A DNA stretch of 64,000 nucleotides from positions 310,001 to 374,000 of the forward strand of contig CM039003.1 in the NCBI GenBank assembly GCA_017499595.2. The letters run 5' to 3'. A program made the translations under genes and the position numbers. This stretch comes from Psilocybe cubensis (Eukaryota). Each line of letters begins with the position of its first letter. Within the stretch, counting starts at the first letter, position 1. The notes under the pieces were generated by a model that was not told the DNA's origin, made no database searches, and saw nothing but the letters and a program-made list of their open reading frames with translations. Below are positions 2,343 to 34,471 of this stretch, piece after piece.

Positions 2343-2445
2343 GCTTCTGTTGCTTTGGCTAAGCCCCTATGGATTCCGAGCGTGTATTGCAATTTGAACA
2401 AAGTTGAAGTCTAATTGTTTTATATACGTTGTGCTGCCAGATATA

Positions 2446-5400
2446 AGATTGGGCTCATCAGGAACCAGCACGTTTACGTAATCAAAAGGCTTGGCGCCAA
2501 GAGCGGCCAAAATCGACTTCAGAAAAAATCAAAAGTTATGTCGACGGAAATTTAGTACAAACACAAGAATAAATGGTAGAAAGTATCATGTAGAATAACA
2601 TTTGTGCACTAGATAAGTGTATCTATGGTTTTCAAATGATAGAAACAGACTCTTATGCAGACATATACTCTGCACGTACTTTGGCAATCATATCTGGAGG
2701 AAGTGTACGGTGACTATGATATCTCTTGTTTATCCAGTGAACTTGTGGACCAGTTAGACCATGCTCATAGCCTGAAATAAACCTTGCTGATCGGTTTGCA
2801 TATCTATTGAACATAATTAGTGAAAAGTTAAACTTTTATTTGTGAAAAGTATAAAAGAATACCTTCTAATCTGAAGTAAAGGAATATCATCAAGGCATTG
2901 AATTACATTGGCTTCCATTTCATCAATGTTGCTTGTTTTGGGTGTATTACGATAGCGAAGCTTTGCTGCTCCCCAGTATTGTTCAATGAAATTGAGTTCA
3001 CAATGATATTTCGGATAAAAATCACAGATGTGACCGCGGGAAGTGATCAATTCCTCAAGGCGTGATTTTTGAGCCACAAAGTCAGGTTGCATGAATAGAA
3101 TACGTCGACAGCAGCAATCAGTCTTGCCTGGTTCGCATTTAAATCCTTCACATTGGGCAAGAAGTCCAGATTCTTTCCAAAGACCTCTTTCCCGGATAAT
3201 TAATTCCATTCCTTTAAACCATCCGGGCATGGTGGGATGGTTATCATCAAAATAGAAGGACTGTATTTGGCCATTTGGAAGGGTAGTAGTTCGCATTTTG
3301 GCACCTCCTTTACGATGAGTCCAATATTGTGATGGATTTTTAGGCATTCTTCTTGCAGATAATGCATCATCAGCACGTTTTTGATGACTTGGGGCATTGT
3401 CAAACAAAAAAAGGCCAGTAGCAAATCCATTGGTCCGTCCTTCAAAAATGTCAATTGCATGATCCACCTGATTAATCAAATCATCCGAGGTGAAATATCC
3501 ATCACGATTTTTTCCTGCTTTGAATAAAATTCGTGCTGATCTAAAATTGATATTTATTAATTCAAACACATATGGATAAAATTTAAATAACATACTCTGA
3601 ACCATCTTGACTTTGCAATCGGCCCCATTCCACAGTAAGAAATTCTGATGGCATGATTGATGTACCTTCTCCTTTTTTTATTGGAACCGGGTTGGTAGAT
3701 TTGTGTGACCATACATTTTTACGGCGATCTGTTTCATAGAATGTTGATTCATCATGGGTAATAAGGATAAGGCGAAAGCGCTGGCCAGCAGGAACAGAAA
3801 AGCCTGAAAGCTGAGAGTTACAATTTCCATCATTATCATAGGAATACATCCGTTTTTCATAGTCCTTCCAGCGCTTGATAAATTCAATCCGGTACTGCAC
3901 AACATCTTCCCGCTCATGACCATCTATATACATACCATTTCGTATTTTTCCATATCGCCAACCCATTTTGTGTAGCCATCGTTTGGCAGTAGAAAGATGA
4001 ATTGATTTTTTTTCAACTCCAAGTTCCTCTAGTTTTTCTTGCATTTCAGGTGTTTGGATAAAGTCCACGATATCTTGAGCACAAATATAGCCAGTTTTTG
4101 CAATGCTAGAAAGATGGAGCTGTATTGCCTCTGAAAAATCTTCATCATCAAGAAGAGAAGGCTGAATACGTGTAACACGGCGGAGTGGAAGCTTTCCAGA
4201 TTTCAAAAACGTGTGGATCCAGCTGCGTATATTCCGAGCATGATTAACCCCACAGCCTTGGGATTTAGCAACTATCAAAGAAGATTCACGCCAACCATAG
4301 GAAAGTTGTGGATCAAGATATAAGTTCAACACGCCAACCATTGCAGTAAGTCTTGCTCGAAGAATAATGTCAAGTGTCTTTTCCTTGCTTCGTACAGTCA
4401 AGGCTGCACAGACCCGACGAAGTTTTGGAAAGTCTTTGTAGCTGAGTTGATCAAGTATGGCATCAGATTCCGTAGGCAAGCTAAAATCCTCAACCTTTCC
4501 ACCTGCTTGTAAATGTTGCAAGAAATTATTGACAGTTTCTTGTGCATCCGAAATTGTAGAGTTGGCAGGCAAGTTAGATTGGGGTGGGTCATTATTTGCA
4601 ATAGGTTGTGCATGATCCAGCTGGGAATTAATATCTCCATCACTTTGTGTATCAGAAGAGCTGTCGGAATCAGATATGGTAATAATATCCACGTTATTTG
4701 TATTGACAGTAGTGGCTGAAGAGGTTGCTGTGGAAGGATTTTTTGGTGTCTTTGAAAACCACTCGGAAATGGGGTGTATTCCTTTATCCCTAAGATCCTT
4801 TCTTGCTCTCTTCTGTCGACGCTTGGTCCTAGCAGAGTTTTTAAGGTACATTTTTGGCCTATTAGTCCTTTCATTCTCAAGCTCCACTGCAATCCGTTGG
4901 GCCTCCAGTAAAATGTTTGAGAATGTTTGTAAATCTGAAGGAGTATTGATCTCTGAGTTCTCTGGCTGCTGTTCCATTTCGCCATCTGATTCAGAATCAG
5001 AATCTTCATCTGAAAGAGTAGAAGAAGATGGTTCTTCAAAGTAATCAAGAAATCCTTGCAAGGTGAAGGAGCCATCTTCATTATATGTTATAATCCCTTC
5101 ATCACTGATATACTCTGCAAGGCTCTTCACATTTGGGCCAGATTGGGGACTAGGGGTTGAGGATTGGATGTCCTCCTCCGGAATATCTTCAATAGAAACT
5201 GAATGATGTTTCTTTTGTGCATATTTGCCCAGGTTTTTGGCTCTAGAAAGTGAGGCTTTGGATTTTCGGGCCATAGATATGATGTATGATGATAGTCGAG
5301 TGGTTCCAAGTGGTCTACTTTATTTTATATCGCTCAAATCACTGCCAACGAGGCTGAGAAACATGCATCGAGGCGTTATCATGATCTTCCGGGAGGTCAC

Positions 5401-5705
5401 GTGATCTATTATATAAGCGGCCAAAAGTGACTTCGTCGAATTTTCAGAAATTGCCCAAACTCGTTAAAACATCATTTCCAATGCTTTACAATAAAAAAGG
5501 GGGGGAAAATTTTGTAAGCCTTATATCTTTCTCAAAAAAAATTTTTTTTTCAAAAAAAAACCGCAGATCTATTCAGAAATACACCTTCTACATATCTGTG
5601 GTTTAAAAATGCAGGATAATGTGGTTGTGCGAGTGGTGAAAACGTTCGGAGGTAAGCCAACTTTTGCTTACCTAAGGGGGTGCTGGTTCCTGATGAGCCC
5701 AATCT
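2446..5705 (-). mobile_element. Tc1/mariner-IS630 superfamily DNA transposon, apparently full length
   Basis: Perfect 26-bp terminal inverted repeats agattgggctcatcaggaaccagcac at 2446-2471 and 5680-5705, flanked by TA (2444-2445, 5706-5707), enclose one DDE transposase gene. Confidence 0.93.
2653..5274 (-). CDS. DDE transposase (DDE_3-like), 3 exons, ~835 aa
   Basis: Exons 5274-3596, 3540-2863 and 2803-2653 join in frame (2508 nt) through GT-AG introns. Motifs: ITHDEST, FLFDNAPSH, YPKYHCELNFIEQYWG and a C-terminal KRYHSHR. Confidence 0.9.
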
Positions 5706-6140
5706 TACATCGCTCGCTGTTGTGATGTATTTTACGAGAAGATACTAGCTTTATATGGCATTAGATACCTTATTGAGACAACCCTGAGCAAATGAGATAG
5801 AAGTTTTTTGAATTTTCGAGTCGTGTTCTGGTATCGTACAAGCAGAGGTTAGCCCCGCCCGAAGGCCAGCAGGGTCCGCCTCTGCTCTATCTACCTATCT
5901 AGTACGTACCTGGTCCGAATAAAGTCGGATAGAACCGCTCGAGGTGCATCCAGAGTTTTCACAAGTCCGAAAATCGAACAATCGGTTGCGTGAAGTCTAC
6001 CGAGTAAGTACATACCCGCTCTTGACACCGCCTCAGAACTCATTCGGCGTCGCCTACAAGCTGTCACACGACCCTTGAGCAGGTGAGTACTATATAAATG
6101 TTAAGTGCCAGTTCATAAAGTCTACCAATCAAAGTACACA

Positions 6141-7037: not shown

Positions 7038-9700
7038 CAGGAGCATAAGGACGGGATACGTGTTGGGGGTTCCCCAAAACCCACTTCACTTTATATCCTT
7101 TTCCCTAATGCTTCTAGTTTATTCAACGTCACGCAATATTTGCCCGTTGCCCCCGTTTCCAAACTAGAATGTGATGTCCAATATACCTGCAAGCTAAAAT
7201 TGGCTCATGTAAATTTTCAGTTGCGGTCTCCTATCCCGGTCTTTTGATTCAACTCCGCTGCTTGTTTTCCCCAATCGCCTGTTCTTTCTCATTATCATAA
7301 ATCATGCTCTCCCCGTCCTTTGTACATCAAATGCGAAATTTCAGTCTCGGTCTCCTGTTCCGGCCTTTTCAATCAAGTCCACTGCGTTCTTATTGTCATG
7401 AAGCTATGCTTCCCGTCCTTGGTGCATCAAACTCAGGTATGTATCATTTCCTATGCTTTACAATTCTTGTACCCACCACAATCCAAAAATTTTGACCCCT
7501 AGACTCAGTAGCTCGTCACTGCGCAGACTCGCGCATCGCGACCCAAGCAGCTAGTGCAAGGCAATCACCATTTAGCTGACGCGATGACCTCATGTCGTTC
7601 CAAACTACTGGACCTCAGTCAGATCGGGTATCCGACTCGCAAAATCTCTCCAGATCGTTGGTTTTCGAAGCTCAAATATTCGATTTTTAGGCTGCATTAA
7701 CGTATTCAGGGTCGCATTCAGGAACACCTGAGCTGAGTAATGAGATTTCAGTAACCGACGACTCACTCAACGCCCACGAAATCCCAAGACAGCAATACGC
7801 TTCACATTCGCTTCCACGGGGTAGATTTTGTCACAGTCCCCTATTTTCTTTGACGACCTATTAATTAATACATTAAATATGTTCACAAAACGCAGACAAG
7901 GTTCACACGTAGAGTCAAAGGGTGACAGAACCAACAGGCGGAGCTCAAATTAGGCGCCCGTGAGTCCGCACTTGCTTCTACCACGACGTCACCTATCCAT
8001 ATCACTCCCACATCCAGTCTGACGTACCGATAACCCCACACAATACCCCCAAAAACGTCGTTCTCGCCCTCTGACTCTCAGGACAACGTTGCCACGTGGC
8101 GACTTGAACCAACATTCCCGTCTTCCGATTCATCGACGCAGGCCAGATTCGCGTACAAGGCACTCGGAAATATCATTCGAATAGGCTGTAAGCTCGAGTT
8201 AGGCATGTTTGAAATGAGGTAATGAGAAATTCGACTCACCCCTCGAGCTAAAAATCGAGATTTACTCGCACCGATCTCTAGATACTTCTACGCAATGTAA
8301 TTACTCCAACACAGTACAACACCCCAAAACAAACTAGCATATCTTTCCAACGTACGCGCAAGAGATAGGTGTGACGAGTCTGCGATTGAATTTTTGTATC
8401 TGCGCTGTGTCGGTGAGTTCTCCACAAAGAGCTGTTTTGTACACCCAAATGCGCCGCTGAATGAGGTCAAGATGTCAATCCTAGACCTCTGAATCATCCT
8501 CAGTCGACTATTAGAAGCTCCCGAAACATGGCTATGAGCGACATTGAAATCATTCGGGCACATACGGCACCTCCTTCTCCTCGCACCCCGATACGCCATC
8601 CACCTTCCACAATAACGCTGTTTCCAGCCCAACCTTGTTAATTAACCGTTCACGTAAGCTTCTAGTACCTTTCGTAACGATATTCAGCGGCGAACTGACC
8701 TTTGAATTGCGTTTGCAGCGGCCACGTAGACGTTGTCCCCGGGAAGCGCCTGGTAAGATCTTGCAATTCTACGCGTTTTCGAGAGGTTTTTGAGGCTAAT
8801 ACTGACTGGAACTGTGTTCTGAATAGGGGTTGGACGGTTTGCGATGCGAAGAGCAACACAAAACGTTGGGAATGAACAAATACATCACGTTTGCTTCAAT
8901 GTACACCAAACAGCGAATTTCGTTGTTTTCTTTGAACTACACATTTCAAACTGCTCACAGATAGACATCCCAGCACTGCATAGCATCTCTCAATGTCCCT
9001 GAAAGCTCCCGCAATCACAGAGTAAGCAATCCAATTCAACGGAGAATATTCTCCTCGCACCTTCCCTCGACGCGAAATTGCATGTACGTCGTTTTTCCGG
9101 CTTCCATTGGTCTCCTGTGAGTCATGTCGTAACGGTTATGTACGTGAATATTAGGCTGAAACGGTTGGAATTTTTGTGGAAGACGGAAATGCGGAGTGAA
9201 TGCAAATATTGCGAATACGAGTGTTAGCGCATCCGGACCATGTCTGCGATGCGCGGTAGTTGTATAGCTACCTAGAGTGATATATCTATCTTATCTATCG
9301 TGTCTTATTCTGTTTTCATAATGTCTGGCTCGTCGAGTGTAATAAAATGAATACCTACAAACACATCACGTCAAATCTAACAAACACAGCAATTCGCACC
9401 TCTCTCCAAATTCCCGTCGATTTAAAGTGATGTACACACCTGAATATACAGTATACCCTGATCCTGCACCGCAGAAATCCGTCAACAAAAGTGCAAATCA
9501 TTGAATACCAATCGGATAACCAAATCCACGACATGACACACCCTCGCCTCCCGCCCAAATTCGCAATTACACACCCATTCGAAACGCTAGAATAAACTGA
9601 CTGGTCTATTCGGTTCTCGGCTCGGGTCTGGTCCGATCAAGGGTCCTGTCAGGTATATTGAGAAGGCCTTCGTAGTTTACTGTACGTTGGTATGTGTGCT

Positions 9701-10632
9701 CCTTCAGTAGATATTGCGAATGGCGTTGTAATTGATGTACGTACGTTTAATTGAGAGTAGGTGGAGATATTGGTATACCATTACATGCCTGCTTGACTTT
9801 GGAAAAGTGTGAGTTGAGACGGGGATGGTTGAAAAAGAAAATGTGAACACTCGAGGACTCCTGCAGAACGCGAATGCGTGAAAACAAGCAAAAAACACAT
9901 TTCATTCACCATAACCATGTTACTACAAACATTAGAATAGTAAGTACCCCTAAGAATACACTACACCCAACTGTCCAAAGACCCTCGAACTCGATTTTCA
10001 AAAATGTATCACTCACCTCACCCGACCTTCCTCTCCTCCCGATCTTCCGCACTAACGGGCTGAAAAACACCTCTGGATTGTTACCACTCGCCCCTGAAGC
10101 ATCCGAAGTCGCCGAAGCCGTAATAATAATACCAAATTTCACAGAAAAAATTGGCAACTTACGTTTTGTAATTTTGTTGAACGTTGCATGTGGACGTAGT
10201 TCTCCTTCAGTAGATATTGCGAATGCCGTTGTAGTTGTTGTACGTACGTTGAAATGAGAGAGAGTGGAGATATTGGCATACTGGTACATCCAGTGGTTGA
10301 CTTTTGAGAGATGTGAGTTGAGATGATGGGTATTTGGAAATGTTACAGAGAGATATCTTCACCCGAACGTGAATGCTTGAAAAACACATAAAACACATTT
10401 CATTGGCAATCCTACTACTCACATTGTGCAGATGGTACATCTATAGGTATCCTACGACCCACCCAGCAATACTCGAACTCGATTTTCGAAATGTATGGCT
10501 CACCTCACATCACCCTCTCCCAACCTCCTTCTCCTCCCGATCTTCCGCACTAACGGGCTGAAAAAAACGTCTGGATTCCTACCACTCGTCCCTGAAGCTC
10601 CGAGGTCACCGCAGCCGTAATCCCAATACCAA
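9701..10632. repeat. Diverged ~500-bp tandem duplication
   Basis: ccttcagtagatattgcgaatg at 9701 and 10204. ctcccgatcttccgcactaacgggctgaaaaa and cctgaagc..ccga also recur ~498 bp apart. Confidence 0.88.
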
Positions 10633-11377
10633 AATATATCGCCAACTTACGTTCATTCCTTTCGTTTTGCTCGTTCGCCGGGCTTGATCCTCGTCGATTC
10701 ACGCACAATTGTGCAATTGTACAACCCTAGAAGGATTGCGTGCGTTATCTGCTATGCATATGGAGCGACTCCTGAGCTTACCTGGCTGGTTACAGACTTT
10801 CAGACACCCAGACAACTCGTCGAAGACCCAATGATCCTCTTGACCCCGATACGACCCTCCGCTTCCATTTCAAAAACAACGCAATTTCCGCTGCATTCGA
10901 CGTATCCAGGGTGTTGTAAGCTAGTGTATATTGCCAACGTAATGCACTAGAGAGGTTCCGAAATTTTGTTTTCGAGGTTAGTTGCATTCGGAATTGAGAG
11001 ATTGGAGATGGGTACGTACGCATTGTGCAGCAAAGAATGCGATCCGGAGCTTTCTACGTGTGTTCCAGTGTTGTTTTGGGAGACTCCTATTCACATTGAG
11101 GTGTGCTTCGATCGAAGGTCGAATGCTCGATAACTGAAAACACGATGAAAAGAGAGGGCGAATGCAAACATCTTGTGCACATTCAAGCCCGATTCGTGTC
11201 TCGCCGATTAGACCCAATAGCGGAGATCCCGACGCCTAGAACAAACGACAGCCTCGAAAGAATATATTGAACGAATCACGTACCCAGATTCAAAAGTAAA
11301 AAGTGAGATTTGAAGGGAATCGCAACCTATTCCGGATGTCGTCACAGGGAGGAAAACACGAAAATAACACACCCGGG

Positions 11378-11435
11378 CTAGCGCGACGGGTTCCGTGTGG
11401 ATGTACGTACACGGGCGTGTCGCGCTAGTATAAAG
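11378..11435 (+). promoter_or_regulatory. Palindrome abutting a TATA box (candidate promoter)
   Basis: CTAGCGCGAC (11378-11387) and GTCGCGCTAG (11419-11428) form outer arms, with inner CCGTGT/ACACGG arms. TATAAAG follows at 11429-11435, then a pyrimidine-rich tract and the first splice donor at 11511. Confidence 0.55.
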
Positions 11436-12920
11436 GCAGGCGTGTGGTGGTGTGTTTTTCCTCATCCCCTCTTCGGGTTCTCGGCCTCGTCTCCTCCTCC
11501 TCTCCTCAAGGTAAGCGCGATTCTCCTTGAGCGCGTCGGTTGACTGTTGAACATTCAACTCGCAGGTTTTGGTGCTGGGGCGCGTCGGGACGAGTGGTAC
11601 TGCAGGCAGGCAAGTCAATATTTGCCACTGTGAGGATCGTGCTCACCATGTATTCGAGCAGCTCGCCGTTGCCGCCTTGTAAACTTGTCGGACGAGCTAG
11701 ATGGCGGGGAGCGAGGTAGGTGTTTCCACCTTTTGAAGGACCATGCTGATGGTCGACGTGGCTAGTGGTGTAGACGCGAGTCGGAGCCTGCTCGCTGGTG
11801 AGTGTTGCCACTGGCTTGTGTGCACTGCTGATGCTCTTGTTGCAGATAGTGTGCTCGTTGTGGCGGGTGTTGGTGTCTCCGTAAGTCGGGTTTTCTTTAC
11901 CTCGACGCGTCGTAGAGTCTCTGTTGATGTATAATGACACAGCGGACAACACGTCATGCGGCGGAGGTGCTGGACTGTGGGGGTCGCATTGGGGTGTGCT
12001 GTAGGCAGGTAAGTCACTGTTGGTCACTGTGGGGAATGTGCTGACCGTGTCTTTTAGCAGCTCACCATTATTGCGGCCGTTGTAAGTGGTAAGTATATCC
12101 TCCTATCTCTTGGATGGCGCGGCTGATGTTGTGTTGTTGCAGACTGGTAGGTGTTTTCACCCACTTGAAGACAGTGTTGATGGACGTGGCAGGTGGCGTG
12201 GACGCGAGTCGGGGAGGGCTTTCAGGTGAGTGTTCCCACAGACTTGTGGTCATTCCTAATGCTTTGACAGCGTGCTCGTTGTTGCGGGTGCTGCCGTCTA
12301 GGTCAGTCGGCTTTCCTTTACCTCGTCGCGTCTGTTGACGTGGGATGAGACAGCGGACCTTGGAGATGCTGAACGCGTCATTCGGCGGAGGCGGACTCGG
12401 ACTGTCAGGGTCGCATCGGGATGTGCTGCAGGCAGGCAAGCAAGTCAATGTTGGTGAGTGTGGGGAATGTGCTGACCGTGTATTTGAGCAGCTCACCGTT
12501 GCCGCCTTGTAGACTTGTCGGACGAGCTAGATGGCGGGGAGCGAGGTAGGTGTCTCCACCTTTTTGAAGGACAATGCTGATATTCGACGTGTCTAGTGGT
12601 GTAGACGCGAGTCGGGGCCTGCTCGAGGGTGAGTGTTTCCCCTGGCTTGTGTGCATTGCTAATGCTTTGACAGTTTTCTCGTCGTTGCGGGTGCTGGTGT
12701 CTAGGTGAGTCGGCTTTAATTTACACCGTCGCGTCGTAGAGCCTGTTGACGTAGGATGAGACAGTGATAGTCGACGCGTCATTTGGCGGAGGTGCTGGAC
12801 ATTTAGGTCAGTGAATGTTTTCTCTCTGCGTGAGTGTGCTCACCGTGTCCTGTACATGTATATAACCAGTCATTGAGATACTGACTCCCAAGGCGTCGGT
12901 GGCGCTGAGCTATGTTGCAG
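11429..12920 (+). ncRNA. Putative multi-intron, micro-exon non-coding transcript or leader (~15 introns)
   Basis: Consecutive donor/branch/acceptor sets: 11511-11565, 11610-11661 (GC), 11716-11765, 11798-11845, 11881-11942, 12009-12060, 12089-12142, 12147-12192, 12226-12270, 12302-12353, 12440-12491 (GC), 12546-12596, 12629-12673, 12705-12764, 12807-12920. No long ATG-initiated ORF was found after splicing. Confidence 0.6.
11570..12845 (+). repeat. Three tandem ~400-430-bp units; units 1 and 3 most alike
   Basis: gacgcgagtcgg occurs at ~11773, ~12201 and ~12604. Segment 11662-11765 is near-identical to 12492-12596 (offset 830). Confidence 0.9.
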
Positions 12921-15204
12921 ACAGAGGCGGCGGCGGCGGCGGCGGCGGTATGGATCTGGGAAGGACGTGTGGAATGAGGTGAAGAACGCGGCTCTGAACT
13001 GTCGACGGTGTGGATGCGTCCCGCTGGCGGTGGTGAAGTATGTTGGAGGGACGCGTCAGGCCAACTGCTTGCTGTCGCGGAAAGGCATGGCTGGCGTGAT
13101 GGACATTGCTGCACCAGTCGGGATGGTTGTAAAAGTCGGGCATGATTGATTGAGGTATTCATGCGACAGCCGGAGAGGCGGTGTGATGCGCCAAGGCGGT
13201 GCGCCTGTTTACACGCACAGGGCAGAGGCCGTTGGTAATCCCTGGCATTCAAGTTCCGCTTTAAAACGGTGGTATCATACATTCGTTGACGGGGCCGCTT
13301 TGCTCACAACCATCCCCCCTGCTCGTCGCCAGCCCCGCTCCCCAGCATCTAATACATCTATTCACGCACGTCGCCGCACAACCGCCCCCGAGAACCATGT
13401 CGGAAATCAAAGGAACCTTGTCATCGTTGGTGATGGTGCTTGCGGAAAGGTATGATCGGCTTTTGACCAGCTCAGAGAACGTCAGCTTGCATGCTGATCA
13501 TCGTCACCCGTCTAGACTTGCATGTTAATCATGTTATCCAAAGGTATATTCCCAGAGGTACGTGCATCGTTAGCCGCCGGCCAGCCAGCCGAGGTGTAGC
13601 GCTTGCTGCTCCTCATTGCACCGTCTTGGGTTGTGTTTAGGCAGCTCCAGCGAATCCCTGGCGGCTTCGTTCGAGGTGTGGAATGCTGATATTGACATTT
13701 AATTCTAGGTATATGTACCAACCGTGTTCGAGAACTCTGTTGCCAATGTCGAGGTCGACGGTAAGTACGTTGAGCTTCAATTGTAAGCTCGTCAAGCTTT
13801 GATGGTAAGCACGTCAACCTTCGTCTCCGCCCTCTCAATTATCCTGATTCGCATGTCATCCCATCCTCATCAGCTTCGCTGTCGACTCCCCAATTCCCTT
13901 TATAACGTCCAGTAAAAGGTGTGTCTTGTCTTTTCTTCATTCCCCCTGCCTGTATAATATCAGACACCGCAATTTACTAACATTGTTGTTGTGTGGTTCC
14001 TCTCTTTTTAGTGCCATACCTATGCCTGCCTGCCTCTCATTCTCGTCGTCTGCAAAACAGATCTCAGACCTGACTCCCGTGTGATTGAGGAGTTTAGAAT
14101 GACGAGCCGTAACCCCCTCAAAGAGGTGCGTTTCTTTTTCCTACATCACATTTCTGGTTTTCGTACGACTTTGGTGTGATGAGGGGCGAGGTGTGTACAC
14201 ACCCCGACCCCTTATCTGAGCGCCGTTTTGTGACATTTTTGCGCTTCGTTCGAATCTGAATAACGGCATTCTTTTTTTGATGTCCTGTTTATCACCATTG
14301 CCTCGTTCCCGCTTCTCTTATCCACATCGTGATCCCCGTCGCCACCAACATTGACGCCGTATTTCAATCCAATTTTATTTTATTTTTTTTTTCATGCATC
14401 ATGTTTTATTTATTCCAACTTGGTACTCGCCACCAACATTGACGCCGTTTTTCAATACAAATTTCATTATTTTTTCCATGCATCATTCTTTTACACTCTT
14501 CCTCTTTTGTTGATTCCAACTTGTCACTAACCGTCATGTTTCTAGGGTATGGCAGTCGCCCAGAAGATCGGGGCAAAGCACTACCTCGAATGCTCCGCCA
14601 AGTCGGGTGAAGGCGTCCGCGAAGTCTTCCAGTACGCCACCCGCGCCGCACTGCTCAGCAGAGGAAAGGGCAAGAAGAGCCACCATTGCATCGTGTTGTA
14701 GATGGCGTAGCTTATCCCTTTTACCATTTGTTTCTTTCCATCTTCATTCATTCTTCCTTTCTTCCTTTTTTTGCTTTTTTCTTCCTTGACGACTCTCTTT
14801 CACTCTTCTTTCCGAGTACCTTGGATGGTTGAATTGGGGTGGGTGAATGTGCAGGGAGGAAAACGGGAGGTGGAGCGAGGGAGGGGTGGGGTGAGGTCAG
14901 GTAGGGAGGAACTTCAACAAGGATAGGGAGGGTCTTGAATATCATTTATACTCGCACCTCGCACCTTCTCTTTCACCTTGTTCCGGTTGGTTGTGGATAA
15001 TGAACATGTGTTAATGCCGGTGGAATGCTCTTCGGTTTCTTTTTTTTTTCTCTTACCTAGTCTTTTTCACTTGATACCGCTTCTTTCTTGATTTTGATTG
15101 ATGATCCACTTTTGACTCTTCTTCTCAAATATACTGCTGCTGCTGCACCTCCCGACTGCGACTGTGAACGAGTTGGCTGTACTGACATGTTTGTCTCTCC
15201 TTGA
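12920..15204 (+). repeat. Segmental duplication copy B (RHO1-pseudogene-bearing block)
   Basis: Direct repeat of 1-2342. Confidence 0.95.
13397..14701 (+). pseudogene. RHO1: RHO1-like small GTPase pseudogene, copy B
   Basis: Same exon-1 frameshift and same loss of ALWDTAGQEDYD as copy A. Last exon 14546-14701 is intact and ends HHCIVL*. Confidence 0.93.
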
Positions 15205-18200
15205 TCTCCTCTTCTATCCCCCCTCGGCTTTTCCTGTTTCCTCTGACCTCTTTGTTGATTTTTTTTCTCGTGCGTTTATCGTGAACTCTGAGTCTCAAAT
15301 CTACCATTCGTCTCGATCTTTTTCTTTGTCCAAGCTCCTATTCCACTATCCGGATTCTGTCGATTCTAATTTGAACAAACTTGGATTTTAATTTCAAGTC
15401 CAATTACATTCCATTGTGATCACTTTTTCTTTTCTTTTACTTATAACGCTCGCCTCCTCGTCCATGTTACTTAGGTTGTGCGTCTGCTTTTGCTATACTT
15501 ACATATATCGCACTTACGAATTGTTGCTGCGCGTACATATGTGCATATTGTGACATTTACATATACAGATATACATACATTACTGTTATCCTTTTCGCTT
15601 TTTGGGACATTGGGTTGTTCTGGGCCGTTCTTGTGCTAGATGGATGTTTTGGTCATTTGCTTCTCTTTGATGCTTCGATGTGGCCTGTTTGTGTTATGTT
15701 ATTAACGTTTATGCATGATGGGTTGATATTGGTCGGTTGGAAAGAAGGATACATTCCTTGTATGCTCTATAGGGAAAAGGTTCAGTATTCACTTGACGCC
15801 CATGTAAGTGCTTCAGTGTCGGCGCCGAAGGTCATCCTACGTCGATGATTCGAGTCTAATTGATGGCACAAAAATTGCTTTTACATGTCTAAGTTCTCGA
15901 CATTTTGTGTACTTTTTCTATAATCTCTGGTTAGGTTTAAATGTTTCCATGTCCTTTATGCACTACGCATTCTTCCAGGACGTCTGCTGGCGCCCATTAT
16001 TATCTCATGAAAATGTGTCGTAAAAATGACAATAATGATAATTCAATTCTTACCACGTAAATAGGTTGAATAGGGAATATTTTGGTTTAGATTTGAACTA
16101 CTTACGGCGTTTTGTAACTCAAAAATGCCTCTTTTTACAAAGTGAACAAGTTTCTTCTTATAAAATCAATGTAAAAATGGGCATTTTCTATCGGATACGT
16201 TTTGGGTGTCCAAAGACAATACCTTGGGGCGTCAGACCTGACGGATGCAAATTTCCTGGGCTGGAACACCAATACATCCTGAAGCTCCCCCCAATGAATA
16301 GTTTTTTGGGAAGTTGTTACAAAAAGTAAACATTTTCCTTGACTAAAATGTTGCAAATGTTTCAAATCATTGCATTTTATTATTGGTTTTTTTCATCGGT
16401 CAAAGGCACTCTCAGTTTGCTCACTTAAATTCATATTTTGCATTATTGCCATTTTTACGAGGGAAATTTCTATGCACGCCAGCAGTAAGCGGCAAAGGCA
16501 ATATTTATTACGTAATCGAGCTTTGATGCACTGCCAAGTTTTCGCGTAGCCGTCATCTTTTCCCTCTTCTCTCTCGCTCACCACTAAATCAAGGTTCTTA
16601 TTGCTGCGATCAGATGAAGCAAGTTGTTGTACCATACAAACTGAGTATGTCTCGCGCGGACAGCTGCTCACAATTGGCTGGATGCCCGACTCTAGCGGGA
16701 TTGTGTAGCCAGCGCGCAGTGAAAACTGTCGTCACGTCGTGCAATCTGGACTTTCTTGGGCAATTTTATTCTGGGTTTCCTGTATCAAAGGTCGGTTATT
16801 TTGTCATGCAATCTTCCGGACGTGGTTCGAGCTCGACAGGAAAAGGAGCTGGGATATTTAAAATTTTAGATGGCGCTTGCATATATGCATATGGTGTGTA
16901 TACTTGTATTGTAGTGCTGTCCCAGGTCCTTGTCTTGTCTTGTGGGCGGCGTGTACGACATCATGATCAACTGTGGCGTTGTGGTTGGATTATACCGGTG
17001 TAGCTGGCGCTGGCCTGGTGATTGGTGATCTTACCGCTGGTTCAATGCGTCGTGAACAAGGTGTGCTGTGGGCGGTGGGACATGCTGTAATTTGTGGGTG
17101 CCGCGTCACGGTTGCTGGATCAGAGTGAAGAACGACTGAAGTTGATATCATATCAGTACGCCGCTGACCATTAAACCACACCTCAGCGCGCTACGGACAA
17201 GTGGAAACTAACCACATCGGTGCTGTCTCCCTTCCGATTGAAACTCGTCTCAGGTCAGTAAAGACTATCACCAAGCAAGTGCTTTATCTAATCGCGTCGT
17301 CCTCCTTGACCGCTGCGCGGGATGCAGTCTCGGAGGTTTTCCAGCTTCACTGTCATTGGTGTATCATAACCTGATAAAAATAAGCATTCTGCCCTAGTAC
17401 GGCGGTAATAGTCCGAGTAGTACCTGTATTCGAGTGAGTGACCTTGTTTTTTCATTCGCTCGTAAAAGGCTCCGTTAATTCCAACTTGTATGAAAGTCGT
17501 ACACGACGTGTCTTCGGTTATGACTCCGCGGTGGGGGGACCGGAGGTTTGTAGCTATTATGGCCCATATATCGCTGCAAGTCGGATCACCTTTGAAGCAG
17601 GACGAGACCGTCTATTCTTGTGGAGACGCTTTGGACGGACCCCGCACGTGGAAAAGGAAGACCATCTTGCTGAATCGCCTTGGGTTCTCAAGAGCGTCAG
17701 TGCACAAGAAGCATTTTCCTGGAATCACCCGGAATAGCTGATCATAGAGTTGTGCTGTGGGCGATCGCATTCAAACTGTTGTGGGGGGTTCATGGCGGGT
17801 GTAAAGCGCAAGCAAAGACAATTGGAAACACAAGGGAAGCCTTGTACACCGTCAATCTTAATTGTGACTCATACACAACGCCCACAGGACACTCTACCTG
17901 CCCGATGACAAACACACCTGCGATGATGGAGTATCTGTCATTGTGTGAGATTAGCCTCTGAACATCCCGTTGGATAAATCTATCAGGCAGTATGGTACGC
18001 CAAACTGCTAGGCACGAGGTCGAGTACCTGAGGGATCTTAGGTCAGAACGCCTGAGAAGATAATAGGACAGAGGGCGGCCCTGTGGGCACTTCTTACTCA
18101 GTACTGCACGGTCTAACCGCCTCGTGCCCTCCGTTTGCTTTTTGTTACCGGTTTAGCCACCCAAGCGGCTAGGCCTTTGACGGACGCATGACTCATGGAG

Positions 18201-28950: not shown

Positions 28951-31900
28951 TCATAGTCCATAATGAATAAATGGCACCCAGGAAAAGAAAGAAGCCTTGT
29001 ATGAACGATCTTCCCGGAGAGTCTTTAGTGCGTAATGTAGCGCATAGGCCGAATCTGTCGGGTCAGGTTTTGGCCGACTGAAAAGATAAGAATAGAAAAG
29101 ATCTGCAATTCTTGGACCGTCATCGTCAAAGATCGACCACATTGTCCCAACAACACTTTGGTAGCCTGCGGAGAGCATTCCTGCAGCTATATGCACCGCT
29201 TCTTCGGGCAAAAGTTCATCGCCAGTGGCTGTTTGACATGCAGAGAGAAAGGCAAACTCTGCATGGGGCAACGAAAGTTTAGAGATGTCGGATAGGGTCA
29301 GCTTGCCCCCACCTGATAGCATTAGGGCGCTCATGTGCGGGTCGTTTGGGTTATGGATACCGTGGCATGCAAAATGAACCCAGCCTGCCGACTGCATCCC
29401 ATTCAACACGTTTTCTCGAGTGGCTTCTAATTCGATTAAGGTTGATACTGGAAAACGGTCGTTGAGATTTTGTATTACCTCTACTTCAGCTTGTGAGCAA
29501 GGTAGTCCAGCCTCCACGGGCAGGGAGATAGCCACTAGATTCTGCCGTTTATTCTTGCGAGGAGTCATGCAGTTTATAAGCGAGCCTAGAGACGGAATGT
29601 AGGAAGAGACAGCGTAGTCTGAAACCTTGGACCCACGCCGTGAACTACCATCTTGCTCATAAATTCCAGCAGCATGGATGGGAAGCATGGTAAGAGGGCC
29701 CGTCAGACACCACCATATATGAGGGAGTTCCGTAATATTGTCGGGGTTTTTCTGAAATGAAGGTATTAGAAGAATTCAGACAGTGTTTATAACTGACTCA
29801 CAGCAAATCCGATTCCGTCTAGTATTGGTTTAACAACACCTGTCCAAAGTTTCGCCAGCAGGCCTGAGAAAATAACCTCGGGGTCCTGCGAGGTCTTGGG
29901 GGTAAGTGGCGACCTTTTTCTTGGTCCTCGGTTACTTCCACGAGCCCTGGTTGCACGTCGTATAAGGCTCTTCATAGTTCCCATTAAACCGTAGGCTTCT
30001 GACGAAGAAAAATTGTCGAGTGGGATGAGAACTATATTTTCTTGACCGGGTAATATAACCAGCGCGTCGCATCTGAATTTATTAATATTGACAGCAATAA
30101 CTGGACCATTGGAAGCTGCTCGGAAAAGGCTCGACATATCTTGAGGCTTGAGAAAATCGTGAAAGTTGTCTAGACCTCGAATTTTTTCCAGAAGTTTTTC
30201 CCTTTCATCTGCTAATTCGTGATATCGCGGCGAACCATTTCGAGTTTTCCTAGGCACAGATAACATCCGTTGTGAAGGGTTCTCGTCTTCCATATTTGCC
30301 AGCGACAGAGAAACCTCTATAAACTTCTGAGCAATATCGGGATACTGTGATGACAAAGAGTCCGTCGGTGCTCGAAGCTGTAGAATTTGACTCCAAATAA
30401 TTGAACGACCATATTCAAGCCATTCGAATGCAAGGTCGTATCGAGTAGCTTTAATGGCTGCCGCAACGGCGTCCAGAACCACTTCACCGACCTCAAGAAG
30501 TTGATGTTGTCGATTACGAATAGAGATACCCAGCCATGCTAAATTTGGGAGAAGCTGCATCGACGTTGTGTATCCCTTGATGGGGTCTCCATGATTCAGG
30601 GATTGACACCAGTATCCACGAAGTGACGCCGCTCGAAAGCGCCAACGAAAAGGGGAAGATTGCAGTGTCGAAGCTTTCAACAGTGCTGCATCGGCAGCCT
30701 CAAGATCCTCCACATTACGCAGACGCTCGTAGCGGACTGGAAGCCACCGACCGATATCAAATAAGAGCATATACCGATGGTCGTTTTTTTCAGTAAGTAT
30801 ATCCTGCGCTTTGCGATATAGGGACAGACATCGGTTGAGGTCGTCAATTTCACTTCTTTGAACATATCTCTGCGCAAGGGCCGAGCCGAGATCATGCATG
30901 ACGCTTGCCTTTTGCGACGAATCTTCGGAGAGTCGGGCAAGAGCGGATTCGAGTGTAACAATGGCTACGTTTAAGTCGTCTGGATCGCGGAAGTGCCAGT
31001 ATCGATCCAGTACAGCTAGGCTATACCTAGCCACAGCGTCCACCTTTTTTGTGTCTTCATCGGGTAAGCGTTCCATATGTTCCTTGAGGAATGCTACCGC
31101 ATCATTTGCGTCATTTATATCACCCGAAAGTTTGAGCCTCCTAAGACGCAGCAATCCTATGTTTGACTGAAGGTCATCATCGTTGTTGTCTCGGGATGGG
31201 GCAAGTTTAAGAGCTTTGTTATAAGCTTCGGCTGATTTGTTGAAATCATCGATATCACCTATGAGATCATAGCGATCCATAAGCGAAAAGCCCAGGTCGT
31301 TCAAAAGGGTATACTTGGTGATGTCTTCGTCCTGACGGATAGAGACAGCCTCGTCCAGAATACTGATTGCTTTGTTGAGATCAGCGAGGTTTCCAGATCG
31401 GCGGAACCGTCGAGTAAGAGCTGTAGTAAGGGCCCGTATATAGGACGAAGAAGGCCCAGATGATTCATTAGGAGATATAATGCAATGTTGAATGGATTCT
31501 GTGCAGAAGAAAACAGCGTTGTCCAAATTCTCCGCATCGCCTGCAACATCGAATTGTTGAATGTACACCGCCAAAAGCATGCCTAGCCATCTTGCCTTGT
31601 GAGTATCAGTTATAGGGAGAGAATCTGCCAGTGTTGAGATAGATTCCAGCATGTTCTGGTCGACTGAGCCCTGAAGCGATTCAAAACGAAGCGAGAGAAA
31701 AATACCAATATTGTGAAGGCGCAGCTTTCCTGCTAACCCTGTATCGCCCATCAACGACTCCATTTCTTCTTTGCAAACGTCCATATCAGTGGTACCGGAA
31801 AAGTTACGGAAAACCTCTACTAGGTCATAGAAACGTTGTTCTAGAATGGCAGTATTATTGACGTTTTCTAGGTCTGAGAATGAAAGAGGGTCTTCGAGGT

Positions 31901-34471
31901 ATTCGACGGCATCGTCAAGGTCGCAAAGTTGGTACGTCTGGTTGAACCGAATAAACAAAGACCGAGCCAGATTCATATAGCATTCGCTGACTAGTTGAGC
32001 GTCGTTCATCAATCCTTTTGATGCGTCCTTTAGGGATTGTATCGCCTTGTCGATGTCCTCTGCATGTTTCAGAACATCAAATCGTCCCATATATGCACGA
32101 CCGAGTTCACTGCACCAGCGAAATTTTTGAGGAACACCCTCCGGAAGCCCCCTCAATGCCTCCAGATAAGAGGTAATACATCGATTCAAAAATAATACGT
32201 CATCGTCTTTCAGAAAGCGCTGGTATAACAAAGAAGCGAGTGTGGCGAGGAGGTAAGGTCTGTCGCCGTGGTCAGTGGGAAGTGGTTGTAACGTCATCGT
32301 TAAAACGTTGTCGGCCTGGTCTAGATCAGATAGACCTTTGAAATGAACATATTTGCTGATGTACGCTTGTACAAGGGTATTTTTCCATAGTACCGTTCTT
32401 GAAGAATATGCTGAGGATGAAATGGATTGTTCAAATAAATCGATAGACTGGTCGATCAGCAAACGTTCTCTGCGTTGTTCGAAAAGCCGGAAGAGTAATG
32501 AGCCGAGATGAAATAACACCAGCGACTTGGAGAAACAGCTATCCGGGAGCTGCATGATAAAAGACCTAAAATGCGGCAGGACATCATCCAAGATGACGTC
32601 GGTCGAGATATTCGCCATTTCAAGTTTGGTAAACATGTTAAGATCCTGCATGATGGCATCGATGTTACCTTCGTCAAGTGCATCGATGTTACTGGCGAGG
32701 AGATTGGTGTACCTTCGGAACTCCTCGATACCCCACACCCCTTGATGCATCTGGCTATGAATCGCGTTCCCGAGGTTCTTGATATACTCAACCCTGTTTG
32801 GGTCCGTGTCGAGTGTGAGTGCAATTGCGTCTCGAATAAGTTGCGTTAGCCGATCAATATCTGATGAAGTACCTCTGGCCGCAAGAGATGTGGCCAGATT
32901 GTTCAGGACAGACGGTTTGAGAGGATCAACTTCGGGGAGTAGTTCCAGAGCCTGTTCATAAAGCGCTACCGATTCTTCGATGTTGGATTGGGTCCTGGTT
33001 TCTTTGAATTGTGAATACAGCGAATGAGCGAGGGACATGAGGAGATGGATTTTTCGTGGGTTGTCGTCAGGGGTAACACGCAAGAATCTCTTTTTGACAT
33101 CGAGGAGCCGTATAGTGTCACCACTGGTATTGCGTAGGGAAACACGAGTGTTCAAAACGTCGATCAAATCGATTAAAAGGGACACTATATGCGGTTCGCT
33201 GTCGGAAGTCAGTCGGATAGCGTTCTCTTGAGCAGCAATGGCGGCATCCAAGTCCGAGTCCTCTTTGCTTTCCAAGAAGCAATTAGCCAAAGCCACACCA
33301 ACGTAGTTACAAAGCACAGGTTTTTGCTTCTCGGTGTCGTCGATGGTCAGGACGACATGGTACATTCGCAATGTCATGTTTTTGAACATCGAAGGTCGGG
33401 AGCTGGAATATTGAACCATTTGTCGCTGATAGCACATACAAAGACTGATCATCATCCACTGCTTCTTTGGGTGGTCACCCGCGGCAAGTGAGAGGGCACT
33501 TTCCAGCATTGAAATAGCGACCTTAAGACCACGATTGTATACTGGGTACATTGGATACTTCTCTGGTTCGTCGCCTACGATGTTTAGGAAGGAATCATAG
33601 CGTGCCAGGTAAATATTTGCGAGCAGTGCCAGAGATCGAGGTGTATGCACATCATCTTTACGGTGCTTTAATAAAGTTCCGTATATTGTACTAAGTAGAC
33701 CTTGATCGGCACTCATGAAACTGGTGTCGGAATCGAGAATCTGGGTGAGCAGGAGGTCAATTGACTCCATTTCCATAGCCTTGACTGCACAGAACTTCGA
33801 TTCAGCAGGATTGGGAAATAAGGGTATGCGTACCGACTGAGATCACTGACTCAGGAGATAGACCTTTCTTAACGTTGGAGGTCATCAAATATGCCGTGAA
33901 AGAGAGGTTTAGAAAAAAATGCTGATCATCCTCGGATGAGATGTCGACAAGAAAACCTATACTAGTTATAAAAATTCACTGATAACGATGTAGAGTGATA
34001 AGCATTACGCACGGGTCTCTCGCTGTGAAGCAGGTGCTTGAATTTGCTCAGTGATTATATCAACAGTACCTAGGGAATTCTTCATGCCGTGATCGTCCAC
34101 TTGAAGGATTCTGATAGCGAATAAAGGATATATTATAGAGCTTCATGTGCTTTCAAGATTGTTTTCTGACGGTAGAAAGGTATAAAACTCACATCAGAAG
34201 TACCTCTTCCTCAAACGACCAAACTCCAGATTCCTTTGCAACTGCTTCTGTTTCGTCATGCACCACATCTTCAATGACTATATGCGCCTCAAATCGACAA
34301 CTATCATCAAATGGAACATTTTGCGAGGGCGCAGGAAGAATGCTGAGATCTACACAAATCAGCACGCTATTAGGACTGTTTCGAGCGAAAGTGCCTCACT
34401 TCGAAGAACGATTCTGCACAAATATATCAGTAAACTTTCAGATTGTTAGAAGGCTACACTGACGTGTCCAT
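28951..34471 (-). CDS. TPR-like repeat plus CHAT (caspase-fold) protease with an N-terminal C2-like domain (~1739 aa)
   Basis: Exons 34471-34458, 34413-34400, 34349-34193, 34140-34013, 33956-33834, 33784-29802 and 29751-28951 total 5220 nt in frame. Many DLDxAI-type helical repeats precede the CHAT motifs HIWWCLTGPL, WVHFACHG, FAFLSACQTATGD and WVPFIHYG. The first two micro-exons are less certain. Confidence 0.9.

Follow-up and report, generated by a model that had tools for sequence, protein, structure and literature searches.

Mammalian long intergenic non-coding RNAs (lincRNAs) are multi-exon transcripts in which constraint falls on splice-related motifs rather than on exon sequence, and the small nucleolar RNA (snoRNA) host genes of the UHG/GAS5 type combine many introns with short non-coding exons. 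The introner-like elements of fungi and algae are dispersed, near-identical, intron-generating copies inside genes. The subject of this report is an array of short intron-like segments in the agaricomycete Psilocybe cubensis, at positions 11429-12920 of a stretch of 64,000 nucleotides (nt), hereafter the window (assembly GCA_017499595.2, contig CM039003.1, positions 310,001 to 374,000 of the forward strand). A literature search of small extent turned up no paper on it. In the silencing of repeats, a precedent is spliceosome-coupled RNA interference (SCANR) in Cryptococcus neoformans, as presented in PMC6643885, and PMC5322907 describes how retained introns of centromeric non-coding RNAs help to recruit RNA interference (RNAi) factors in Schizosaccharomyces pombe.

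The array is like the lincRNAs in that its splice signals are better kept than its interiors and in that its + strand has no long open reading frame (ORF), but it differs from them in that splicing is not seen, in its density of one intron-like segment per 80-100 nt or so, and in its origin as a tandem repeat. It is also unlike the snoRNA host genes, as segments of 45-62 nt are too short for a snoRNA, and an Rfam search of 9000-16000 (E <= 1) detected none, returning one chance-level match to a bacterial small RNA and nothing else. With the introner-like elements it has in common a repeated sequence with complete splice signals; its modules, however, are tandem and lie outside any coding gene, and BLAST of a unit against the 64-kb window gave no matches outside the array itself. 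SCANR targets and the dg/dh non-coding RNAs of S. pombe are likewise repeat-derived, intron-bearing RNAs that stay unspliced, whereas the signals of the array are near-consensus and numerous rather than few or weak, and the host is an agaricomycete. Public P. cubensis gene models (P0005, P0006 and others) cover the same DNA, but they read the opposite strand as protein. The reading that we favour, tentatively and as plausible rather than established, is that the array is a transcribed, multi-copy non-coding repeat specific to this lineage, with a + strand intron architecture that is genuine at the level of sequence but goes unused in the bulk RNA.

Structure of the array

The array comprises 15 intron-like segments on the + strand, 14 of them 45-62 nt long and the last 114 nt, with spacers of 4-86 nt between them. 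GT(GC)..AG ends with an extended donor consensus are present in 15/15 segments, and a YTRAY or CTCAC branch-like motif is located 6-35 nt before their 3' ends. An earlier note, made from the sequence alone, had proposed a TATA box followed by about 15 such segments, and all 15 are present with the signals and lengths that it gave; its tandem structure of three units of about 420 base pairs (bp) was confirmed as well, the start-to-start spacings found by repeat search and BLAST being 399-431 nt. The features are listed below in order, with the RNA contig pieces that contain them (see RNA over the array).

11429-11436, + strand: TATA-like GTATAAAG, read from the sequence
11511-11565, + strand: segment 1, GTAAGC..TTGAC..CAG, 55 nt; within RNA contig piece 11023-11593
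11566-11982, no strand: tandem unit 1, 83.5% identical to unit 3 in the alignment
11610-11661, + strand: A1, GCAAGT..CTCAC..CAG, 52 nt
11716-11765, + strand: B1, GTAGGT..CTGAT..TAG, 50 nt
11798-11845, + strand: C1, GTGAGT..CTGAT..CAG, 48 nt; within the 97 contig letters from 11787
11881-11942, + strand: D1, GTAAGT..TTGAT..CAG, 62 nt
11983-12409, no strand: tandem unit 2, with an identity of 73.6% to unit 1 and of 77.2% to unit 3
12009-12060, + strand: A2, GTAAGT..CTGAC..CAG, 52 nt
12089-12142, + strand: segment X2, GTAAGT..CTGAT..CAG, 54 nt, unit 2 only; within two contigs of run X2 (12070-12147 and 12046-12145)
12147-12192, + strand: B2, GTAGGT..TTGAT..CAG, 46 nt; preceded by a 4-nt 'exon'
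12226-12270, + strand: C2, GTGAGT..CTAAT..CAG, 45 nt
12302-12353, + strand: D2, GTCAGT..TTGAC..CAG, 52 nt
12410-12830, no strand: tandem unit 3, from repeat search and BLAST
12440-12491, + strand: A3, GCAAGT..CTGAC..CAG, 52 nt; within contig piece 12408-12494
12546-12596, + strand: B3, GTAGGT..CTGAT..TAG, 51 nt; within contig piece 12497-12800 (0 differences)
12629-12673, + strand: C3, GTGAGT..CTAAT..CAG, 45 nt; within contig piece 12497-12800
12705-12764, + strand: D3, GTGAGT..TTGAC..CAG, 60 nt; within contig piece 12497-12800
12807-12920, + strand: last segment, GTCAGT..CTGAC..CAG, 114 nt; its end coincides with the start of the block whose other copy opens at window base 1
12926-12948, no strand: GGC microsatellite, at which the RNA contigs break

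A pyrimidine-rich stretch 3' of GTATAAAG, at about 11455-11510, forms an exon-like leader. Across methods the identity of units 1 and 3 ranges from 81 to 83.5% and that of unit 2 to the others from 70 to 77%, and the extra module at 12089-12142 is carried by unit 2 alone. The modules follow one another at a spacing of about 80 nt, and the B and C modules can be aligned to each other. At A1 the + strand segment is overlapped by an intron-like segment on the minus strand (11646 to 11600), and A3 has an alternative donor, GTGAGT at 12454, which gives a segment of 38 nt. Tandem Repeats Finder did not report the array of about 420-bp units, though BLAST detects it. In one RNA-derived copy the 4-nt 'exon' of unit 2 (12143-12146) is 24 nt long, with 20 added letters after 12145, and spacer length is therefore free to vary by non-multiples of three.

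Excess over chance

A strict scanner, defined by a donor, a YTRAY branch 6-35 nt from the end, a YAG acceptor and a length of 40-80 nt, was applied to 11429-12920 and finds 13 non-overlapping matches on the + strand and 4 on the minus. Over all 64 kb of the window the totals are 53 and 31, respectively, which corresponds to means of 1.2 and 0.7 per 1492-nt window, and no other 1492-nt window has more than 4 matches on either strand. One thousand dinucleotide shuffles of the array gave 1.33 ± 1.07 matches on the + strand, with a maximum of 5 against the 13 observed, and 0.65 ± 0.79 on the minus strand against 4. Because the units are copies, single units were scanned separately, and units 1, 2 and 3 still have 3, 5 and 4 matches where 0.35-0.41 are expected (P = 0.005, 0/1000 and 0/1000). 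The scanner is strict enough to miss both RNA-confirmed introns of the neighbouring gene (0/2), and these introns, of 56 and 66 nt, are close in length to the 45-62 nt segments. Two further properties lie outside the scan criteria, namely the GC content, which is 62% in the exon-like and 50% in the intron-like parts, and the letters before the donor, G at -1 in 13/15 and A at -2 in 10/15, counts that are non-independent because the units are copies. The intron-like anatomy of the array exceeds chance.

It could be argued that composition alone is at work, and that a G+T-rich repeat simply yields GT...AG strings. The + strand of the array is indeed G+T-rich (A 16%, C 22%, G 33%, T 29%), triplication multiplies any chance match threefold, and a proven genomic deletion described below has GT..AG ends by chance; the shuffles, however, produce 1.33 ± 1.07 matches against 13, and 0.35-0.41 against 3-5 in single units, and the -1/-2 letters, the alternation in GC content and the range of lengths fit introns though none of them entered the scan. 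We give this explanation almost no weight.

Conservation of the splice signals

The earlier note had remarked that splice signals persist in the units while neighbouring bases diverge. This was upheld, in a comparison that rests on three units only: 51/60 splice-signal columns (85%) are invariant in all three units, against 180/279 of the other ungapped columns (65%; Fisher P = 0.002). Exon-like and intron-like interiors are equally changeable (68% and 65% invariant). Block permutation with random blocks of the same size gave P = 0.005, 0.12 and 0.003 when the signals were defined from units 1, 2 and 3, respectively. Decay of CpG was considered as the cause of the better-kept signals and rejected, as the gap persists when CpG columns are left out (50/58 signal columns invariant against 141/213 others, P = 0.003).

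RNA over the array

Two runs of one study, X1 and X2, which are available as assembled contigs and are not recorded as RNA, were classed as RNA by their behaviour. Their contigs end loosely in poly(A) at 15147 and 15151, the neighbouring gene has clean GT..AG joints (19021>19078 and 19214>19281, in a contig of 2.0-2.3 kb), and depth is absent at 15476-16477, where the DNA run X3 has cover. Contigs of both runs are present in every bin across the array. Collinear contig pieces span 11023-11593, 97 letters from 11787, 12046-12145, 12070-12147, 12408-12494 and 12497-12800, and 7/15 of the predicted introns are retained inside them, whereas 0/15 of the predicted + strand junctions occur among the 15 joints listed. 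Of the earlier note's spliced long non-coding RNA, the lack of coding on the + strand is supported, and actual splicing is unsupported in the RNA examined. At a likeness of 90%, the DNA runs X3 and X4 leave 10800-13137 uncovered, which is taken as a hole only and carries no inference on other strains. Two features have to be added here.

10800-11428, no strand: left flank; shares an RNA contig with the beginning of the array and belongs to the duplicated segment
11999-12045, minus strand: 47-nt skip with CT..AC ends, equivalent to GTCAGC..CTACAG; run X2 only, depth 45, 'between: not known'

The contig with the piece 11023-11593 crosses the TATA-like sequence and the proposed start, so that a start at the 11429 site is unsupported. 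The same contig contains the pieces 10800-10964 and 11023-11593, with 4 and 24 differences, and extends 415 letters left of 10800. The 47-nt skip is the only canonical-type joint among those listed, and it is of the minus-strand type; its acceptor, 11999, is common to the skip and to the public minus-strand model, and its counterpart in unit 1 was flagged by the scanner as a minus-strand intron candidate. Other irregularities of the contigs are skips with GG..TT and TA..GT ends, the 20 letters inserted after 12145, and a backward joint, 12800 to 12408, which implies an extra unit in the source copy of that contig. These irregular joints point to RNA from structurally different units or copies.

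A 193-nt skip, 11593>11787, with GT..AG ends and two extra letters, was tried as a splice and rejected, since it is a genomic deletion in the second copy. The last 75 residues of the public model P0006 are identical to the deleted form at 72/75 positions in one ungapped block, against 41 identical for the intact window.

A rival reading, that of the earlier note, has a non-coding + strand unit that starts from the TATA at 11429 and is truly spliced at most of the 15 introns, splicing itself being what is selected. The unspliced RNA would then be antisense or precursor, and splicing would, for example, help to stabilise or export a leader that continues into the RHO1 pseudogene. Such a unit would explain why a full intron anatomy occurs far above chance, why exon-like and intron-like parts alternate in GC content, why conservation is specific to the signals while the interiors of exons and introns are free, and why there is a TATA with a pyrimidine-rich leader; the lengths of 45-62 nt are near the confirmed 56 and 66 nt, and the segments fit a stricter consensus than the two real introns next to them (scanner 0/2). 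Moreover, in basidiomycetes introns raise RNA accumulation cumulatively, according to PMC3744415. The RNA argues against it, with 7/15 introns inside contigs, 0/15 junctions among the 15 listed joints, and a contig that runs across the TATA and the start; the neighbouring gene's contig, by contrast, is cleanly spliced in the same runs. Nothing was seen to connect the array with the RHO1 block, and both copies of the downstream gene are frameshifted pseudogenes. We consider this reading possible and rather doubtful.

Coding potential and the public protein models

The earlier note held protein coding to be unlikely, and for the + strand this stands: the array spliced in silico has no long ATG-started ORF, and the spliced unit lengths of 187, 182 and 159 nt shift the reading frame between units. 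On neither strand is a reading frame conserved between the units. The differences between units favour no codon phase (P = 0.12, 0.37 and 0.58), and the indels between them are not in multiples of three. The minus strand has stop-free frames of 144-198 amino acids (aa), the longest of which compares with a shuffle mean of 136 aa; 198 aa is reached in 5.2% of shuffles (P = 0.052). Public databases nevertheless hold a protein model on this strand.

11509-12782, minus strand: public gene model P0005 (UniRef A0A8H7XKW0, 321 aa), exons 12782-12477, 12331-12165 and 11998-11509

P0005, a P. cubensis 'uncharacterized protein', is an exact translation match to the window. Its introns would be of about 145 and 166 nt with the weak donors GTCAGC and GTGGGT; both intron borders are read through by RNA contigs (12408-12494 and 12046-12147), and the position of the first intron is not the same in two public annotations. 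From unit to unit, a given minus-strand protein model reads homologous stretches in different frames. Pfam gave no match for the 321-aa model, and AlphaFold2 returned a mean predicted local distance difference test score (pLDDT) of 37 and a predicted template modelling score (pTM) of 0.14 with almost no secondary structure, which is weak evidence, coming from a single sequence. Among 1.84 billion representatives, the only match beyond P. cubensis was a bacterial one of low complexity. P0006 (UniRef A0A8H8CFI9, 299 aa) is a second copy, in which 225 of the first 226 aligned residues are identical to P0005 before the deletion sets in. Four further public models are about 90% identical, namely JR316_0006648 and JR316_0006650 (P0001 and P0002), which both lie on one 3.6-Mb contig, and A0A8H7XLH1 and A0A8H7XNL5. 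None of the public models records the + strand intron-like architecture, and the minus-strand protein models of the array look spurious.

If P0005 were nonetheless a genuine orphan gene of 321 aa and three exons, with a repetitive, disordered product, the + strand signals would be incidental. The exact match and the five further public models, the stop-free frames of 144-198 aa, a gene-like codon score in the annotated frame (see Discussion) and the one minus-type joint at the model's acceptor can be cited for it. We regard such a gene as improbable, given that the open frames are near the expectation from composition (P = 0.052), that the units are read in different frames with no codon-phase bias and with indels not in threes, and that the model introns of about 145 and 166 nt have weak donors, while the confirmed neighbours measure 56-66 nt. 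RNA contigs run through both model intron borders, the two annotations differ on the first intron, and the product has a pLDDT of 37 and no homologue outside the species; furthermore, 'incidental' fails as a description of 13 + strand segments where 1.3 are expected. An attempt to join one long minus frame across the three units through combinations of intron candidates was rejected, as it reached at most 324 stop-free codons with arbitrary choices and yielded no clean gene.

The duplicated segment and the RHO1 pseudogenes

The array lies at the left of a block that is found twice in the window.

1-2313, + strand: block A, the other RHO1 pseudogene block, with the first-exon frameshift in common
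12920-15162, + strand: block B, RHO1-derived pseudogene with ATG at 13397 and a first-exon frameshift; modelled publicly as P0009

Both RHO1 copies are pseudogenes, because the same first-exon frameshift is present in each. Compared with each other, blocks A and B form a mosaic of identity (81-100% per 200 nt), and the proteins read from this assembly's two arrays are almost the same, a pattern that would be expected of gene conversion. The duplicated segment measures at least 4.4 kb (10800-15162), with the RNA contig reaching 415 letters further left. There are at least two array copies, and an array most likely also precedes block A outside the window, which fits two arrays per public assembly.

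The earlier note had the last acceptor, at 12920, open onto the duplicated block and the unit feed into a captured RHO1 copy. The first of these arises from the edge of the window: the other copy begins at window base 1, so that 12920 only looks like the border of the duplication, and homology may therefore continue leftward beyond the window. As to the second, no link between array and RHO1 was seen, the contigs breaking at the GGC run and 12916-12959 being masked, and the RNA examined gives no support for a spliced unit that would lead into RHO1. No public model joins array 'exons' to the RHO1 pseudogene, and public P0009 is a separate + strand gene from 13186, in divergent orientation to the array model on the minus strand.

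RNA of the true RHO1, which lies elsewhere in the genome, cross-maps to the pseudogene, with the frame restored by one extra letter after 13409. At 13409/13416 the contigs with the frame-restoring letter make up a depth of 134 of 192.6 in X1 and 301.5 of 372.4 in X2; as part of the depth is without the letter, pseudogene-type copies are apparently transcribed too. Likeness to the true RHO1 messenger RNA begins only 11 nt upstream of the ATG, with loose ends before 13386, and reaches the poly(A) site at 15147/15151, which lies 11-15 nt before the block end at 15162. The captured piece is therefore roughly transcript-sized, yet its introns are retained. In the 5' flank of block B, an RNA contig at 12962-13148 has six differences from both window copies in about 190 nt, which suggests that the genome contains three or more copies of the block. 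In the DNA runs X3 and X4, joints fall exactly at 15162 (15162>15363 and 15393>15589, 'between: not known'), so that the right end of the block is also a structural breakpoint between strains.

Other features of the window

Around the duplicated segment no terminal inverted repeats (TIRs) were found, the only ones being those of a separate DNA transposon of the Tc1/mariner type at 2440-5711. Its 32-nt TIRs (2440-2471 and 5680-5711) are 97% complementary, it has minus-strand ORFs at 2817-3677 (with a weak DDE_3 match) and 3583-5319, and it adjoins RHO1 pseudogene block A on the right. Left of the array there are two tandem copies of about 440-460 bp (9696-10136 and 10199-10633) that are 76% identical and whose ORFs have no Pfam match; the TATA-spanning RNA contig reaches into the second of them. 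A large minus-strand gene at 28951-33842 encodes a CHAT protease-like domain (E = 5.5e-39), adjoins an open frame of 1351 codons with weak TPR matches, and is unrelated to the array.

Discussion

On the reading that we favour, each unit consists of four or five modules of about 80 bp that combine, on the + strand, the anatomy of a short intron with a GC-rich mini-exon, and the segment evolves by gain and loss of units, by indels and by gene conversion. The array is transcribed, and the accumulated RNA follows the DNA and is unspliced at the + signals, running across the TATA and more than 1 kb leftward. Most array RNA would probably be a long, largely unspliced minus-strand transcript that may start in the spacer common with the 5' flank of the RHO1 pseudogene, and it is this transcript that gene callers may have turned into an orphan ORF. 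The + strand architecture may in turn descend from an intron-dense + strand transcription unit, the signals of which would today serve no RNA at all, or just a minor or unstable one.

A number of points weigh against this reading. The contigs are strandless, and assignment to the minus strand leans on one joint marked 'between: not known' and otherwise on indirect arguments. A single study supplied both RNA runs, most attributable contigs stem from the other copy or copies and are not provably of this locus, and beyond the 15 joints listed there are another 12, as there are a further 80 contig pieces. Contigs, moreover, show presence and not absence: a fully spliced + strand RNA would be made of blocks of 4-86 nt that possibly could not be placed on the window, and the last junction falls in the masked repeat 12916-12959. 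Signals that are better kept than their surroundings (85% against 65%, P = 0.002-0.005) are not what one expects of an unused relic, and they point to selection on + strand splicing, at least since the triplication. Finally, the 198-aa minus frame has a codon-usage score of 0.070, against -0.017 ± 0.04 for simulated open frames (P about 0.01), in a test that is weak in that some real genes of the window score below zero, and that was computed on sense codons only because an absence of stops alone yields a positive score; this leaves some room for a young coding gene on the minus strand.

The better-kept signals keep alive two readings, genuine splicing of a + strand RNA that is minor or unstable and a role of the retained introns themselves. 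On the latter, a repeat-derived RNA with many stalled or repressed introns, perhaps along with the antisense RNA, would feed small-RNA or heterochromatin silencing of the duplicated pseudogene family. It would reconcile conserved signals with unspliced RNA, in a multi-copy repeat with a transposon nearby and with intron-like signals on both strands at the A modules, and it has precedents in PMC6643885 and PMC5322907; as the introns in those precedents are few and suboptimal while here they are many and near-consensus, and as the strand of the unspliced RNA is not tied to +, we think it unlikely. Little probability is likewise given to a wider proposal, in which the array would be a selected, 'spliceosome-engaging' non-coding repeat of tandem near-consensus introns whose signals are kept and which stay largely unspliced, perhaps with both strands transcribed, and which would mark a pseudogene family for RNA surveillance or small-RNA silencing.

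The reading of the array as a transcribed repeat with unused + strand signals would make it a cautionary case, in which perfect-looking introns can attract a reader of the sequence alone to a strand whose RNA stays unspliced, and automatic annotation has filed the opposite strand as orphan proteins in public proteomes. If, on the other hand, the + strand signals were used or bound, the array would provide an uncommonly clear example from nature of selection that acts on splicing signals and nothing else: introns would recur about every 80-100 nt, there would be no constraint from coding, and the interiors of exons and introns would change at the same rate. Were the spliceosome-engaging proposal true, agaricomycetes would have their own equivalent of SCANR and of the retained dg intron, with the introns much more tightly packed and multiplied in tandem. 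Use or binding of the + strand signals would also offer a handle on how 'self' transcripts are discriminated from those of repeats in the intron-rich basidiomycetes.

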